A DNA stretch of 4,068 nt from Patescibacteria group bacterium (GTDB taxonomy: Bacteria > Patescibacteriota > Patescibacteriia > Magasanikbacterales > GWA2-37-8). The translations under genes were made by a program, and so were the position numbers. The stretch is from positions 1 through 4,068 of the forward strand of contig SCQK01000011.1 in the NCBI GenBank assembly GCA_004321885.1, read 5' to 3'. How positions within the stretch are numbered: position 1 is the first letter of the stretch; each line of letters opens with the position of its first letter. The notes beneath the pieces are model-generated. The model was given only the letters and a program-made list of their open reading frames with translations, searched no databases and was not told the DNA's origin. Shown here in pieces: positions 56 to 4,068 of this stretch.

Positions 56-137
56 TTGTAAGGCGAAGCTTCGCAATCGCGGCAGGGCTCGGAAATGAAA
101 TTAAAATTTCATTTCACTCGCCCTTTGCGATTGTAGG
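56..137. repeat. Imperfect palindromic repeat element, copy A (REP/MITE-like), lying between a possible upstream gene end and the ATPase promoter
   Basis: Seen in sequence. There is a 12-bp perfect palindrome GCGAAGCTTCGC at 63-74. There is a perfect 11-bp-stem, 2-nt-loop hairpin GAAATGAAATT-AA-AATTTCATTTC at 92-115. Outer arms CAATCGC (74-80) and GCGATTG (127-133) pair around it, and AGGGC (84-88) pairs with GCCCT (120-124), giving an imperfect stem-loop of about 60 nt. The termini TTGTAAGG (56-63) and TTCACTC (113-119)-N10-ATTGTAGG (130-137) recur in copy B downstream. Confidence 0.55.
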
Positions 138-151
138 TGTGGATTCAGAGC

Positions 152-209: not shown

Positions 210-1388
210 ATGTTTTATTCACGCAAAATCCTCCCCTTTTTGAAGCAGCATCTAAAGAAGCGGCCGATTACGGTTATTACCGGGATGAGACGAACCGGCA
301 AAACAACGTTGGTAAAGCGTCTTTTGGATTTGGCGCCGGCAAAAAACAAAATTTATCTTGATTTGGAATTGCAATCCAATCAAGATATTTTCGCTCCAAG
401 AAATTATGATGAAATAATCCAAACCCTGCGCCGCCGTGGTTTGACGTTTGAACAAAAAGTATATATAGCGATAGACGAAATTCAGCTTGTACAAAACATT
501 CCAAGTATCTTAAAGTACCTTTATGATAATTTTGATATTAAATTTATTGTTACTGGTTCCAGTTCGTATTACATGAAAAATTTATTCGCCGAATCTCTGG
601 CCGGCCGTAAAAAAATATTTGAGCTTTATCCTTTGGATTTTGGCGAATTTCTTGATTTTAAAGAATTTCCGCGCGCGCGCGCAAATAATTGGCAGAGCAA
701 ATTTAATGTGGCGGAATACGAAAGAATCAGGATGTATTATGAAGAATACGTGGAATTCGGCGGTTTTCCGGAAGTGGTTTTGGCAAAAATCGCCGCTGAT
801 AAAAAGGAATTGCTGGACGATATTATTAGTTCATACATAAAAATTGACGTGGCGACTCTTTCGGATTTTCATGATCGGCAAAATGTTTATGATATAATCA
901 AGATGCTGGCAAGCCGCGTGAGCAACAAAATTGATTTTTCCAAACTCTCTCGTTTATCCGGAATTTCGCGAACGATGGCGCGGAACTATCTTGGTCTTTT
1001 TACCGATACCTATCTTGTTGCGCAGGTGCCTGTTTATACCAGAAATCGCGATCGTGAAATAGTAAAAGCAAAAAAATTGTATTTTTGCGACAACGGACTG
1101 CTGTCTTTTTTGGCAGACGTCGGCAGCGGGGCGAAATTTGAAAATGCCGTTTTTAACCAGCTCCGTCATAATGGGCAAATTAGTTATTTCTCACTTAAAA
1201 ACGGTAGGGAAATAGATTTTGTTTTGGATGAAAAAATAGCTTTTGAGGCAAAGGAAACGCCGACACAGACAGATTTAACCAATTTGAAAAATTTGGCTAA
1301 AACGGCCGGTTTGAGGAAACACCGTCTGATCGGCCGGCGACGGTCTCCCGTTTTTAGTGATTATATGTGGGGGGGAGAAATAGTATGA
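210..1388 (+). CDS. AAA+ superfamily ATPase, AAA_14 N-terminal domain plus DUF4143 C-terminal domain (COG1373-like 'predicted ATPase'); function unknown; 392 aa
   Basis: This is the 392-aa ORF from the supplied track. Walker A GMRRTGKTT sits at aa 25-33 (nt 282-308). Walker B hhhhDE is YIAIDEIQ at about aa 85-92, followed by a sensor-like IVTGSSS. The DUF4143 hallmark FSKLSRLSGISRTMARNYLGLFTDTYLV...KKLYFCDNGLL matches my recollection of the family consensus LAKELGIS..TV..YL..LE..FLI...KIYFYDTGL. The C-terminal GREIDFVLDEK (D336, nt 1215-1217) and IAFEAKE (E346-x-K348, nt 1245-1253) resemble a PD-(D/E)xK catalytic motif. ATG 210 leaves about 24 residues before the P-loop, which is typical for this family. 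Confidence 0.92.
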   Translation: MFYSRKILPFLKQHLKKRPITVITGMRRTGKTTLVKRLLDLAPAKNKIYLDLELQSNQDIFAPRNYDEIIQTLRRRGLTFEQKVYIAIDEIQLVQNIPSILKYLYDNFDIKFIVTGSSSYYMKNLFAESLAGRKKIFELYPLDFGEFLDFKEFPRARANNWQSKFNVAEYERIRMYYEEYVEFGGFPEVVLAKIAADKKELLDDIISSYIKIDVATLSDFHDRQNVYDIIKMLASRVSNKIDFSKLSRLSGISRTMARNYLGLFTDTYLVAQVPVYTRNRDREIVKAKKLYFCDNGLLSFLADVGSGAKFENAVFNQLRHNGQISYFSLKNGREIDFVLDEKIAFEAKETPTQTDLTNLKNLAKTAGLRKHRLIGRRRSPVFSDYMWGGEIV

Positions 1389-1470
1389 GAAATTAATTTT
1401 GAGATAGGGGGCGAAATTCGTTGTACGGTAAAATAGGGGGAGAGAAAATTAAAACCAAAAAAATTCAGCT

Positions 1471-4068
1471 ATGCTTGTCTGGCTGAAAATAATCTATTTC
1501 CGCTTGAAGCACAAATTGTTTGGCGTATTTTTACGTCGTTCGCTGAAACGAGCGTTCTCTTTGGTACCCTCCCCTATTAGGGGAGGGACAAAGGGTGGGG
1601 TTTCTCGCCATCGCCGCCAACGCGGCTATGGCCGGGCTGTCATTGCGAGCGAAGCGAAGCAATCCCATGCGTATTTAAGAAATGCCCTGCTTTTTTGTAA
1701 GGAATTGCTTCGTCGCTTCACTCCTCGCAATGACATTGTGGGCCTTCTCCACCCCCGCCACTTTCGCGCCGCCATCGCCTCGCTGGTCATCATCACCATA
1801 CTTCTCAATATTTTCAAACCGGCGCCGAGCAATATCGCCTATGGCGCCACATACACTTTTACCCAAACATCGTGGAGCGGCGGCGCCAGTTCTACCGCAG
1901 TGGCCACGCATGCCAGCGACCAGAGCGGGTGGAATAAATATGTTACGCTCGTGGATGGCGGTTTAGCGGGTCATTGGAAAATGGATGAAGCAAGTTGGAA
2001 TGGCACGGCCAATGAAGTGCGGGATAATTCTCAAAACAGAAATCATGGCGTGGTTTCCGGTTCAGTTCCTCTCTCAAATACCACCGCGGACGCGAAATAC
2101 AGCCGAGCCGGGAGTTTAGACGGCAATGACGCCGTAGTAGTTAGCGACTCCTCCAGTTTAAGGCCGGCGCAGCTCACAGTCTCTGCCTGGATTAAACCAA
2201 ACGGCGTTCAAGTCGGCGCTGCTAGAATCCTTGAAAAATATTGGGGCGGCGCTCCGACTTGGGATTCTTTTGTTTTGCGCTATGGATATACAGACAACGG
2301 AGAAAATCCAAACGCCATTACTTTTGACATCGGCAAATCCGGCGGGTGGACTGGTTGCATCAGCACTTCAACCAGTTTTAGCGGTGTATGGTCATTCATT
2401 GTTGGAACGTATGATAAGCAAAGTTTAAAAATTTATGTGAATGGTCAATTAGACAATGGCAACTGTCCGGAAACAGCGGATGTTATTTACACCAGCGGCG
2501 CTTTAAATATAGGTAAGTACGAGGGCGGCTCGGGCTTCAATTATAATGGCATAGTTGATGATGTTCGTGTCTATAATCGCGCCTTGTCCGCCTCTGAAGT
2601 GCGTAATTTGTACCGAGACACTTATCCGGATACTATTTCGGCCGGCGCCATGGTGCAACTGGCCTACATCAGTCCCACCTCTACGACCAGCACTTACTCC
2701 ACTGGCACCTCCACGCTCATCTCTTCTATTTTTGACGCTGGTGACGCGACCAATGTGGTCTCTAACATAAAATGGACAACCACGACCCAGCCGAGCGGGA
2801 CAGCCATTCTTTTTCAATTGCGCACAGCCAGCACTTCGGCTCTTGTTGACTTGGCCACTTTCGTAGGGCCGGATGGCACAGCCAATACATATTTTACCGA
2901 CCCCACCGGCGCGCAAAACACCACCACGACCATGCGCGACGGGGCCAACGACAGATTTTTTCAATACAAGGCGATTTTGACCACGACTAACGCGCTTAAT
3001 ACCCCCACCCTTGACCGGGTTCAAGTAACTTATGTTGTTAATGCCCCGCCTGAGGTGCAAAATGTGGTGGCGACAGCTAATGACGATGGCACGGTTACTG
3101 TTTCTTATCAAACACGCGATACAGACACTGATTCTGGCACTTTGGCCAATCGTTACAAAATTACGCCCTCGTTCCAATATTGTCCAAATGGCACGGGGTG
3201 TCAAAGCATTACCGCTCTCACGGCAAGTTCCACCGAGGCCAAAGCCGTGGCCACTTCCACTTGGACCACCCATACCGCCACTTGGACTCCGGCCACGGAT
3301 TTTTCCAACACCTATGACACTAATGCCGTAGTTAGAGTTACCGCCAACGATAACGAAGAAGCTAATAATACTGGTTCAGCCAATTCGGTTGGCTTTACTT
3401 TGGATACTATTGTTCCAACTTCCAGCGCTGTCAGTGTGAATGCTTCTGTTTCGCCTGTCGCTCTTGCTCTCTCGTCCTCGGATAGCTCCACCCTCTACAT
3501 GAAAATTTCTTTGAACAGCGATTTATCCGGCGCCAGTTGGCAAAGTTACGCCACAACCTCAACTATTACTCTGGCCAATCCCACCAGCACTGTCTATGTC
3601 CGCTATAAAGACGCGTATGGCAATCAGTCGTCAATTCTTTCCGCCGCTCCCCCAGAACAGCCAACTAATGCTGTTGTCCAAGACACAACAAATATCCTTA
3701 ATGGTCAGACGGATTATCGCCTGTTTATCGCCTGGAAAAAAATTGCCACGCCTGCTTCTGGTTTTGCCAATTACAAAGTTTATCGCGCCACTTCCACTGG
3801 CGGCAGTTATTCTCTTGTTGGCACTGTAATTGACATTAACACAAATTTTTTTACCGACACTACCACTGCCTATAATACTGATTATTACTATTACATTACG
3901 GCCACGGATAATTCCAGCAGCATCTCCTACAAGTCCTCAATCTTAAACGGCAAAGCCAACGGCACCCAAGACGCGGGCGAGGGCGGGGGCATCATACCGG
4001 CGGCCAACACCCCCACCATTTCCAATGTCGCCACTTCCTCGCCCACACCCTCGTCAATCACCATTACC
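1471..4068 (+). CDS. Large secreted or membrane-anchored surface protein, 5'-partial at the window end. N-terminal signal-anchor helix, then a LamG/concanavalin-A-like lectin domain (Laminin_G_3 type), then Thr/Ser-rich beta-sandwich (FN3/Ig-like) modules. It continues beyond 4068.
   Basis: My manual translation of the frame with codons at positions congruent to 1 mod 3 is stop-free from the TAA at 1450-1452 to the window end. The track omits it because there is no stop in the window. The first in-frame ATG is 1471. An in-frame GTG at 1738 begins a textbook signal anchor, VGLLHPRHFRAAIASLVIITILLNIFKPAPS. LamG hallmarks span about 1990-2630: ...LTVSAWIKPNG...WSFIVGTYDKQSLKIYVNGQLD...NGIVDDVRVYNRALSASEVRNLY. 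FN3-like hallmarks lie downstream: YKVYRATSTGGSYSLVGTV...TDTTTAYNTDYYYYITATDNSS. The composition is rich in T/S/A/G/N and low in charged residues, which fits an extracellular protein. The start is uncertain. ATG 1471 would give a basic tail of about 89 aa that contains the repeat elements. GTG 1738 gives a classical signal peptide but sits in GC-rich structured sequence. Confidence 0.8.
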   Translation, partial: MLVWLKIIYFRLKHKLFGVFLRRSLKRAFSLVPSPIRGGTKGGVSRHRRQRGYGRAVIASEAKQSHAYLRNALLFCKELLRRFTPRNDIVGLLHPRHFRAAIASLVIITILLNIFKPAPSNIAYGATYTFTQTSWSGGASSTAVATHASDQSGWNKYVTLVDGGLAGHWKMDEASWNGTANEVRDNSQNRNHGVVSGSVPLSNTTADAKYSRAGSLDGNDAVVVSDSSSLRPAQLTVSAWIKPNGVQVGAARILEKYWGGAPTWDSFVLRYGYTDNGENPNAITFDIGKSGGWTGCISTSTSFSGVWSFIVGTYDKQSLKIYVNGQLDNGNCPETADVIYTSGALNIGKYEGGSGFNYNGIVDDVRVYNRALSASEVRNLYRDTYPDTISAGAMVQLAYISPTSTTSTYSTGTSTLISSIFDAGDATNVVSNIKWTTTTQPSGTAILFQLRTASTSALVDLATFVGPDGTANTYFTDPTGAQNTTTTMRDGANDRFFQYKAILTTTNALNTPTLDRVQVTYVVNAPPEVQNVVATANDDGTVTVSYQTRDTDTDSGTLANRYKITPSFQYCPNGTGCQSITALTASSTEAKAVATSTWTTHTATWTPATDFSNTYDTNAVVRVTANDNEEANNTGSANSVGFTLDTIVPTSSAVSVNASVSPVALALSSSDSSTLYMKISLNSDLSGASWQSYATTSTITLANPTSTVYVRYKDAYGNQSSILSAAPPEQPTNAVVQDTTNILNGQTDYRLFIAWKKIATPASGFANYKVYRATSTGGSYSLVGTVIDINTNFFTDTTTAYNTDYYYYITATDNSSSISYKSSILNGKANGTQDAGEGGGIIPAANTPTISNVATSSPTPSSITIT
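1567..1587. repeat. Perfect GC-rich palindrome/hairpin CCCTCCCCT-ATT-AGGGGAGGG with a 9-bp stem and 3-nt loop
   Basis: Seen directly: 1567-1575 is the exact reverse complement of 1579-1587. No U-tract follows (the downstream sequence is ACAAAGGGTGGGG), so it is not a canonical intrinsic terminator. It lies 180 nt after the ATPase stop and inside the stop-free frame of the downstream gene. Confidence 0.7.
1639..1741. repeat. Imperfect inverted-repeat element, copy B: arms of about 25-31 bp at 1639-1663 and 1704-1734, a 40-nt loop, and terminal ATTGTGG (1735-1741)
   Basis: The left arm is GTCATTGCGAGCGAAGCGAAGCAAT. The right arm ATTGCTTCGTCGCTTCACTCCTCGCAATGAC is its reverse complement apart from a roughly 6-nt insertion. 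It shares TTGTAAGG (1694-1701), GCTTCG/TCGCAAT and TTCACTC (1717-1723)-N11-ATTGTGG with copy A at 56-137. Every frame translates to VIASEAKQS / LLRRFTPRND / DCFASLAMT-type peptides. I recall, unverified, that these are hallmark pseudo-peptides of a widespread palindromic repeat family. The overlapping small track ORFs 1626-1832(-), 1675-1911(-) and 1682-1966(+) derive from this element. Confidence 0.6.

Follow-up and report, generated by a model that had tools for sequence, protein, structure and literature searches.

In-frame palindromic repeats, with a candidate CGTC-like REP dimer among them, in the probable signal-peptide tail of a patescibacterial LamG protein

Repetitive extragenic palindromes (REPs) tagged by the motif CGTC form a superfamily whose members include Neisseria dRS3 and the Rickettsia palindromic elements (RPEs) RPE-4 and RPE-6 of R. 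conorii (Di Nocera, De Gregorio & Rocco 2013, BMC Genomics 14:522; PMC3733652). Their hallmarks are a CGTC head (with TGTC and CCTC variants), a stem opening with A-T, a CCA tail and a frequent arrangement as inverted dimers; in the families CGTC-1 to CGTC-4 the stem measures 8-9 bp and the loop 4-5 nt, and dimers are mostly head-to-head (PMC3733652). These elements occur in many copies per genome, mainly in intergenic DNA near the 3' ends of open reading frames (ORFs) and mostly in Alphaproteobacteria, and no dedicated transposase is known for them (PMC3733652). Intragenic, in-frame copies are documented, RPE-4 and RPE-6 among them, and the same authors explicitly caution that REPs at annotated N-termini are often extragenic (PMC3733652). 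Here we analyze a 4068-nt stretch of DNA (the window), which is the entire NCBI contig of a Patescibacteria group bacterium, and in which palindromic modules lie within the open frame (gene 2) of a LamG-domain protein; one of these modules, hairpin B, resembles a pair of CGTC REPs.

Three further systems provide points of comparison. For RPE-1, in vivo expression evidence for N-terminal insertions is available as cited in PMC3733652. REPINs are REP doublets that form hairpins, carry GTAG-type heads and are mobilized by REP-associated tyrosine transposases (RAYTs) encoded in the same genome (PMC3116915, PMC2817692). Palindromic amphipathic repeat coding elements (PARCELs) are tandem repeats in surface proteins that are selected for the peptide they encode (PMC2996958).

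Gene 2 is truncated by the contig end, and from position 1453, directly after an in-frame TAA, to the end of the window its frame is free of stop codons. The first start codon of this frame is ATG 1471, exactly where the public protein P0001 begins (866 aa, 'LamG domain-containing protein, partial [Patescibacteria group bacterium]'); the remaining in-frame start candidates before the signal anchor are TTG 1504, 1516, 1561 and 1705 and GTG 1738. Between the basic tail that follows ATG 1471 and the anchor lies a presumed insert of about 186 nt (62 codons, 1564-1749) made of three hairpin modules, with the hairpins themselves within 1564-1737. Our preferred reading, which sequence comparisons make probable, is that these repeats are in frame and are translated from ATG 1471 as part of an over-long signal peptide. 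The main alternative, possible though in our judgment doubtful, holds that translation starts at GTG 1738 (at a nearby ATG in P0002, the ortholog introduced below), that the REP cluster is intergenic and that the 89-codon open frame is an accident of GC-rich, stop-poor DNA; the cluster would then act at the RNA level, either by stabilizing the 3' end or terminating the transcript of the upstream gene (gene 1), or by forming a structured 5' leader of gene 2. The features of the region are as follows.

1427-1434, plus strand: GGTAAAAT, a possible -10 element 36 nt upstream of ATG 1471, proposed from its likeness to ortholog sites
1450-1452, plus strand: in-frame TAA that closes the gene-2 frame upstream (read from the sequence)
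1471-1563, plus strand: ATG 1471 and 31 codons of a basic, hydrophobic tail (MLVWLKIIYFRLKHKLFGVFLRRSLKRAFSL; 8 K/R, 0 D/E), the favored and annotated start (start of P0001; same ATG and tail in P0002)
1537-1554, plus strand: small terminator-like hairpin cgttcgctgaaacgagcg followed by ttctctttgg, within the tail-coding stretch (terminator scan)
1565-1604, plus strand: module (i), ccctcccct-att-aggggaggg-acaaa-gggtgggg-ttt, the palindrome 1567-1587 followed by a G-rich repeat and TTT (folding)
1606-1633, plus strand: module (ii), GC-rich hairpin cgccatcgccgcc-aac-gcggctatggc (-18.9 kcal/mol, z -3.7), absent from the preliminary description of this stretch
1638-1666, plus strand: hairpin B, 5' unit, with head TGTC, ATTGC, GCGAAGC mini-hairpin, GCAAT and tail CCC (a short CGTC-like REP unit)
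1667-1700, plus strand: hairpin B, variable spacer or apical loop, different in every family member
1701-1735, minus strand: hairpin B, 3' unit, inverted, of the long form TGTC-ATTGCGAG-GAGTGAAGCGAC-GAAGCAAT-TCC (sequence and family model)
1738-1740, plus strand: GTG, alternative start, 3 nt past the base of hairpin B (opening cost 20.7 kcal/mol; no Shine-Dalgarno-like motif)
1744-1767, plus strand: point at which homology to repeat-free orthologs resumes (LLHPRHFR, aligned with ..NKKQFHA; tblastn from query residue 92, alignments)
1768-1815, plus strand: hydrophobic core of the signal anchor or signal peptide, AAIASLVIITILLNIF, conserved in the family (translation)
1837-1860, plus strand: A-Y-G / A-T-Y-T-F, with a probable signal-peptidase I site between 1845 and 1846 (invariant columns, inspection)
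2119-2601, plus strand: LamG (Laminin_G_3) domain of gene 2 (PF13385, 6e-26, aa 217-377)

The preliminary description had noted that the gene-2 frame stays open upstream of the anchor for longer than expected by chance, giving a probability of 0.01, and that this open stretch contains both a perfect palindrome and the whole of hairpin B. All of this holds on re-examination. Over 1471-1749 the gene frame has no stops while the two other forward frames have five and three, and with the expectation set at four the probability of none in the gene frame is about 0.02; the palindrome at 1567-1587 and hairpin B at 1639-1734 both fall inside the open stretch when checked on the sequence. Across the 174-nt repeat block one of six frames is open, and that one is the gene frame. 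The block has 55% G+C, compared with 40% in gene 1.

P0002, encoded on a 44-kb contig of another Patescibacteria assembly, shares this arrangement. It is 72% identical overall to the window protein and 79% identical over the first 157 aa, and its N-terminus, MLAGVKAIYLRLKHKLFCVFFKHSLRRAFSL, has the same Met, a tail identical at 21 of 31 positions, and all three modules in frame; the two extensions differ by one 5-codon indel, with no frameshift. The conservation of ATG and frame, with this 15-nt indel, over about 285 nt despite some 21-32% amino-acid divergence argues against a start at the anchor, as does the lack of conservation of GTG 1738: in P0002 a Leu codon takes its place, and Met codons stand one position earlier and two positions later. 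The hairpin-B peptides of the two proteins differ at two positions (E/G and T/A), and at both it is P0002 whose codons match the family consensus (GGATTGC, GCTTCGCTC); from this we deduce that the window copy has probably decayed as a hairpin while keeping its frame.

P0003 (locus L001) is full-length and collinear with P0002 (41% identical over 1071 aa), lacks the repeats, and has a 40-aa basic tail ahead of the same helix; translated basic tails of 40-65 aa precede the anchor in the repeat-free orthologs. The homology between the window and these orthologs restarts at residue 92, about 10 nt past the end of hairpin B. An in-frame insertion is what these comparisons point to, with the repeats missing from P0003/L001, in frame in P0002, and free of stops in the gene frame. 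The N-terminal extension suggested in the preliminary description was to be judged by whether orthologs all start at the anchor, and it comes through: the closest orthologs do not begin there, P0002 being extended in frame and the repeat-free proteins being tailed. The accompanying proposal of an in-frame palindromic insertion is partly supported, by orthologs, frames and start accessibility, with two amendments, namely that translation is something we infer, and that the palindromic DNA in frame is a mosaic of three different modules and not a single element.

The family tail itself carries a coding signature. Seven subfamily loci start MKREKFFSLYPALIKKRLK.., with the ATG 2-7 codons after an in-frame stop and some 32 nt past a conserved TGGTATAAT, and differences among their tails are distributed 73:66:134 over codon positions 1, 2 and 3. 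Since the differences concentrate at the third codon position, the pre-anchor tail is, on this pattern, translated in the family. More distant family members have short n-regions.

Two other lineages show palindromes in the same place. In L162 (a groundwater contig, 1136-1620) the tail MKRKKCLSFKPTPLKK scores significantly against a hidden Markov model (HMM) of the family tail (0 of 5000 shuffles). Palindromic modules, one of them a look-alike of module (i), occupy the next 105 codons or so, and the conserved anchor comes after them; the sequence after the modules is homologous to P0004. The L162 gene frame has no stops, compared with three and two in the other frames across the insert and five and two when the tail codons are included. 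L162 is, as far as its sequence tells, an independent case of in-frame palindromes in the family tail. In L192/L193 (5400-6000) a 154-codon frame upstream of a family gene has no stops, compared with eight and ten in the other frames; within it are four canonical CGTC REPs with a TGTC head, an AT-starting stem of 8-9 bp and a CCA or CTC tail. These REPs extend upstream of the ORF, leaving its start less clear, and we regard L192/L193 as a probable third case. The recurrence in L162 and L192 of a pattern in which only the gene frame is open speaks against an accidental open frame in the window. As a separate observation, the tail-coding DNA of L162 and L002 contains small native palindromes, cgattttactcgaNNgtaaaatcg, with a tandem duplicate in L162.

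The candidate start codons differ in accessibility. Opening the mRNA from -20 to +12 costs 9.5 kcal/mol at ATG 1471, which lies in an AU-rich, mostly unpaired context, and 20.7 kcal/mol, about twice as much, at GTG 1738, which adjoins a -39 kcal/mol stem. GTG 1738 had been described as lying in stem sequence while yielding a textbook signal peptide; the conventional signal-peptide layout stands, and the codon lies 3 nt past the base of the stem. We found no Shine-Dalgarno (SD) motif at ATG 1471, at GTG 1738, at gene 1 or at the orthologs, in agreement with the earlier remark that the SD-less, AT-rich context of ATG 1471 resembles that of gene 1. A scan found no promoter-like site between 1471 and 1738, so a transcript reaching 1738 should also carry the accessible AUG 1471, and initiation there would, given the open frame, produce the long protein; this too counts against an exclusive start at GTG 1738.

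Upstream of ATG 1471, the possible -10 element GGTAAAAT at 1427-1434 was not flagged by a strict sigma-70 scan. In orthologs, T(G/A)TGGTATAAT or TGATATAAT precedes the tail ATG by about 20-33 nt, and a conserved promoter and leader in the 60 nt before this ATG (L001 5955-6000, L003, L004, L008 and L019) comprises T(G/A)TGGTATAAT, then TCTTCTGTAAAGAAAG and an ATG about 32 nt after the -10 element, again with no SD. A codon-usage frame test gave the window tail a margin of -6.4; genuine ortholog tails range from -4.6 to -18, and the test is therefore uninformative. Several other motifs were noted in the upstream regions. A direct repeat, ATAGGGGG(C/A)GA..AAATT, lies at 1403-1420 and 1431-1450, just before ATG 1471, and related AAATAGTA motifs occur near the start of gene 1. 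In two of nine orthologous loci (L001 5934-5942, L002 2520-2528) a perfect DnaA-box consensus, TTATCCACA, lies upstream of the gene promoter, and in both the sequence TGTGGTATA is found downstream of the box.

The three modules of the repeat block are unrelated to one another. The perfect palindrome of module (i) (1567-1587, ccctcccct-att-aggggaggg) folds at -19.7 kcal/mol including its flanks, and near-identical copies of the module occur at L002 504-542, L203 4811-4844, L204 1500-1533 and L162 1407-1446, and beside a hairpin-B element in L148 (2437-2461). From these copies, module (i) is a member of a second recurrent element family, with the pattern CCCTCCCCT-NNN-AGGGGAGGG-N5-GGGTGGGG-TT. 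The downstream G-run of module (i) could also pair with the C-run as an alternative to the palindrome. No relatives of module (ii) were found in an exact-pattern scan of viral contigs. Hairpin B (GTCATTGCGAG...CTCGCAATGAC, 1639-1734, with the flanking T1638 and A1735 also pairing) folds at -39.2 kcal/mol (z -5.4), and none of 200 shuffles was as stable. Rfam gave chance matches in the window (EAV_LTH at 23 bits against a gathering score of 70, another at 19 against 44), and the EAV_LTH, Ms_IGR-8 and microRNA-like matches were all discarded as chance.

We searched IMG/VR by exact scan for the two 11-nt ends of hairpin B, a pattern that fixes the outer 11-mers and the tails-inward arrangement and samples only that arrangement, and found it in at least 120 contigs. 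The matches listed, to which the counts below refer, contain at least 139 copies of 77-105 nt in host DNA of 36-72% G+C, with up to three copies per contig (L042-L161). Aligned in one orientation, the family reads C-GTCATTGCGAG, a variable side hairpin, CGAAGCAATCC, a spacer of 20-35 nt, GGATTGCTTCG, CTTCG or a second side hairpin, and CTCGCAATGAC-G; the side hairpin has the canonical form GGAGC-GAA-GCGAC, which includes the GCGAAGC mini-hairpin. The inner GCAATC/GATTGC stem is nearly invariant though outside the search pattern, and pairs flanking the cores covary (4/120, CG 40 and UA 18; 53/85, CG 44 and UA 23; 54/84, AU 40 and CG 20). A covariance model, R1, built from 75 copies matches the window at 1635-1738 on the minus strand with 74.6 bits (E 1.5e-18). 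Hairpin B is a bona fide member of a repeat family.

Each unit of this family, 22 or 28 nt long, consists of a 5-bp stem, a GA-rich internal loop, and a GCGAAGC-type mini-hairpin or a longer variable side hairpin. Arm heads are CGTC in 144 and TGTC in 85 cases, together 229 of 240, and among arm tails CCA is commonest (115 arms) and CTC next (57); both arms of every copy contain ATTGC...GCAAT. The window copy has TGTC heads at 1638-1641 (plus strand) and 1735-1732 (minus strand), and tails CCC and TCC. All 139 copies have their tails next to the spacer and their heads at the outer ends, as the search pattern requires. With part of the defining characters of the superfamily in place, hairpin B appears to be a CGTC-like REP dimer of a type outside the four described families.

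A simple stem-loop finder for canonical REP units detected them in L192 and none in the window. A perfect canonical hairpin-B unit is present on plasmid pOB3b1 of Methylosinus trichosporium OB3b (L205 1499-1583), about 20 nt from two convergent gene ends, a location typical of REPs. Rfam had no match on the element in nine loci with canonical copies, and the hairpin-B sequence was not found in the searchable literature, where only unrelated primers matched. We rejected an attC site, an IS200/IS605 end and a miniature inverted-repeat transposable element with target-site duplication as identities for hairpin B: there is no RYYYAAC/GTTRRRY core, and the flanks are inverted stem extensions, not direct duplications. 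GCGAAGC also occurs in enterobacterial REP loops, but those are GTAG REPs. Downstream of a tandem array of about eight hairpin units with a period of about 129 nt in L105 (1700-2680) stands a hairpin B (2719-2802); the array is unrelated to it, and its weak microRNA-like Rfam matches are all far below gathering scores.

Most copies of the element lie outside genes. Among the matches listed, 24% of copies lie where a frame stays open for 50 codons or more to either side, compared with 60% of random positions on the same contigs, and because copies are depleted in long open frames in this way, the family appears to be mainly extragenic. There are 33 candidate in-frame copies with long flanking open frames, mostly in high-GC contigs, and one of ten long ORFs tested through such copies has Pfam support. 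This ORF, in L126, encodes a phage portal protein with the portal domain at aa 63-391, and the element (5727-5810) occupies aa 495-522 of 600; it may be a translated C-terminal extension, or a stop codon may have been lost. The check named in the preliminary description, whether other copies sit in frame inside genes, thus finds one example with Pfam support, L126, and no Pfam backing in the other nine ORFs. Peptides that recur as spurious translations of hairpin B are VIASEAKQS, HCEERSDEAI, LLRFARND and DCFASLAMT.

Several of these observations weigh against translation of the repeats from ATG 1471, and most of them suit a start at GTG 1738 with the repeats in an untranslated region. Most REPs lie between genes, and annotation frequently takes them for N-terminal coding sequence (PMC3733652). 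GC-rich repeats contain few stop codons, so that long open frames through them arise easily. Copies of hairpin B are depleted in long open frames, nine in ten long ORFs through them go without Pfam support, and the Methylosinus copy lies between convergent genes. GTG 1738 would yield a conventional signal peptide, with the n-h-c layout MGLLHPRHFR-AAIASLVIITILLNIF-KPAPSNIAYG/A, and the short n-regions of distant family members would fit such a start. The window tail may be fortuitous, sharing only composition with the family tail: against the family tail HMM, 2911 of 5000 shuffles score as well as the 31-aa window tail, and for this reason we dropped the idea that it is demonstrably ancestral. 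Hairpin constraints alone could slow the divergence of the window and P0002. The terminator-like hairpin at 1537-1554 is compatible with an end of the gene 1 transcript; the number of sites of this kind is not above shuffle expectation. Finally, searches of the protein database, GTDB genomes and JGI metagenomes gave no relative closer than P0002 and no empty-site allele, the nearest repeat-free ortholog being only 41-49% identical.

A third possibility is that ATG 1471 and an anchor-proximal start are both used, with the hairpins setting the ratio of long and short precursors by slowing ribosomes or masking GTG 1738. Both the window and P0002 do have the two candidate starts, and strong structure lies exactly between them, but the downstream start codon occupies different positions in these orthologs and no known regulatory RNA family in Rfam matches, making this a very unlikely explanation. 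That the repeat block is a chimeric join between an unrelated tail and LamG gene is scarcely credible: the contig is short (4068 nt) and misassembly often occurs at repeats, but tail, repeats and anchor follow one another in identical order on the independently assembled 44-kb contig of P0002.

Translation from ATG 1471 suggests a simple model for how the gene accommodates its repeats. The gene 2 product would be a secreted or anchored surface protein of a family that normally has a basic cytoplasmic tail before its signal-anchor helix. In the lineage of the window and P0002, about 186 nt of hairpin DNA would have lodged in the tail-coding DNA without breaking the frame, as a block of a C-rich/G-rich palindrome module, a GC hairpin and a tail-to-tail CGTC-like REP dimer, and translation starting at ATG 1471 would read through it to give an n-region of about 99 aa. 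Since the 62-aa insert peptide is strongly basic (13 K/R versus 3 D/E), it should remain cytoplasmic by the positive-inside rule and leave insertion of the helix AAIASLVIITILLNIF undisturbed.

By inspection the region has the parts of a Sec-type signal, with RHFR or the long basic tail as n-region, AAIASLVIITILLNIF as h-region and A-Y-G/A as c-region. The predicted cleavage region contains the invariant columns A123, A126, T127, Y128, T129 and F130, and orthologs have AQ[GA] followed by ATYTF, the likely start of the mature protein, which in the window would begin ATYTFTQTSWSGG. Signal peptidase cutting at AYG/ATYTF would remove tail and repeats together and leave the mature protein unaltered. 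An insert that is basic and upstream of the probable cleavage site would be harmless, and if the tail is discarded in this manner, repeated insertions would be tolerated and only the frame-preserving ones seen, making the tail a permissive landing site.

A broader proposal, which taken as a whole we consider unlikely, joins these elements. It would make the pre-anchor tail a recurrent landing pad for REP-type palindromes in at least three independent lineages (window and P0002, L162, L192/L193), translated within an unusually long signal peptide, where the hairpins might be kept for a purpose, pacing early elongation or masking an internal start, and so render export or the choice of isoform dependent on mRNA structure. 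Hairpin B would then be an undescribed fifth CGTC-like REP type, with an interrupted stem and a GNA mini-hairpin, common to Alphaproteobacteria, Patescibacteria and many uncultivated genomes.

If translation does run through the repeats, the occurrence of selfish palindromes inside genes, in the style of Rickettsia, would extend to the Candidate Phyla Radiation, and their survival would have a simple reason, in that a signal-peptide n-region discarded after export is a free parking place. The locus also bears on annotation: start calls of REP-bearing genes are often wrong, and the long call of the public pipeline is probably right here. Hairpin B is very widespread (at least 120 IMG/VR contigs and a Methylosinus plasmid), has no Rfam family and gives rise to numerous 'hypothetical proteins' that are spurious (...VIASEAKQS..., ...LLRFARND..., ...DCFASLAMT); annotation clean-up would benefit from a covariance model of the element.

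Two features lie upstream of the region discussed so far.

69-138, plus strand: 'copy A' hairpin, upstream of gene 1 (-34.1 kcal/mol, z -5.1)
210-1388, plus strand: gene 1, an AAA_14/DUF4143 ATPase, the upstream same-strand neighbor of gene 2 (Pfam PF13173, 5e-32, and PF13635, 2e-26; ORF listing)

The preliminary description treated copy A and hairpin B as copies of one repeat. The covariance model does not bear this out, as R1 scores copy A at 5.8 bits (E 1.7) compared with 74.6 bits for hairpin B, and we rejected copy A as a family member; the two have in common only a stretch of about 20 nt (ttgtaagg..gaa..gcttcg), a marginal similarity equalled by 11 of 500 shuffles. Downstream of the anchor, the LamG region of the window protein (1861-2700) replaces a long, propeller-like repeat region of YxYSIxxNxW type found in P0002 and P0003. 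As the three proteins share their N-terminus and C-terminal half and differ in the middle, their sequences indicate domain shuffling within this surface-protein family.

Among the described systems, hairpin B resembles PARCELs, by description only, as palindromic repeat DNA read as protein and spread over distant taxa, and differs from them in being a single, mostly extragenic element tolerated in a tail. Like REPINs, it consists of two inverted REP units with a short spacer that form one long hairpin, with covarying pairs flanking the cores; REPINs have GTAG-type heads and a RAYT gene, whereas hairpin B has CGTC/TGTC heads. It is closest to the CGTC REPs, with arms that carry a CGTC/TGTC head, an A-T-opening stem (ATTGC...GCAAT) and most often a CCA tail, units that form inverted dimers able to fold as one long hairpin, and copies that are mainly intergenic, the Methylosinus (Alphaproteobacteria) copy lying near two convergent stop codons. 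Several traits set it apart from those REPs: the stem is interrupted where theirs is a simple one of 8-9 bp with a loop of 4-5 nt, the dimers are joined tail-to-tail (an arrangement fixed by the search pattern) across a spacer of variable length, and the host here is a Patescibacteria bacterium. The sequence ATTGCGAG was not found in the searched text and supplements of PMC3733652.

The comparison with Rickettsia palindromic elements drawn in the preliminary description is apt, as the hairpin-B arms have the head and the AT-starting stem, and across the family most often the CCA tail, of the superfamily to which RPE-4 and RPE-6 belong (PMC3733652); the likeness to RPE-1 is one of description, not of sequence comparison. 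As with the in-frame elements of Rickettsia, palindromic DNA lies inside an ORF with the frame kept, orthologs lack the insert, and the region tolerates extra residues. In contrast to them, the window insert combines three unrelated modules within a probable signal-peptide n-region, and its translation is predicted from sequence. In-frame insertion of REPs and RPEs is already known from Rickettsia; what the window adds is a new instance, in a further host phylum and with a CGTC-like REP that is a new variant in structure.

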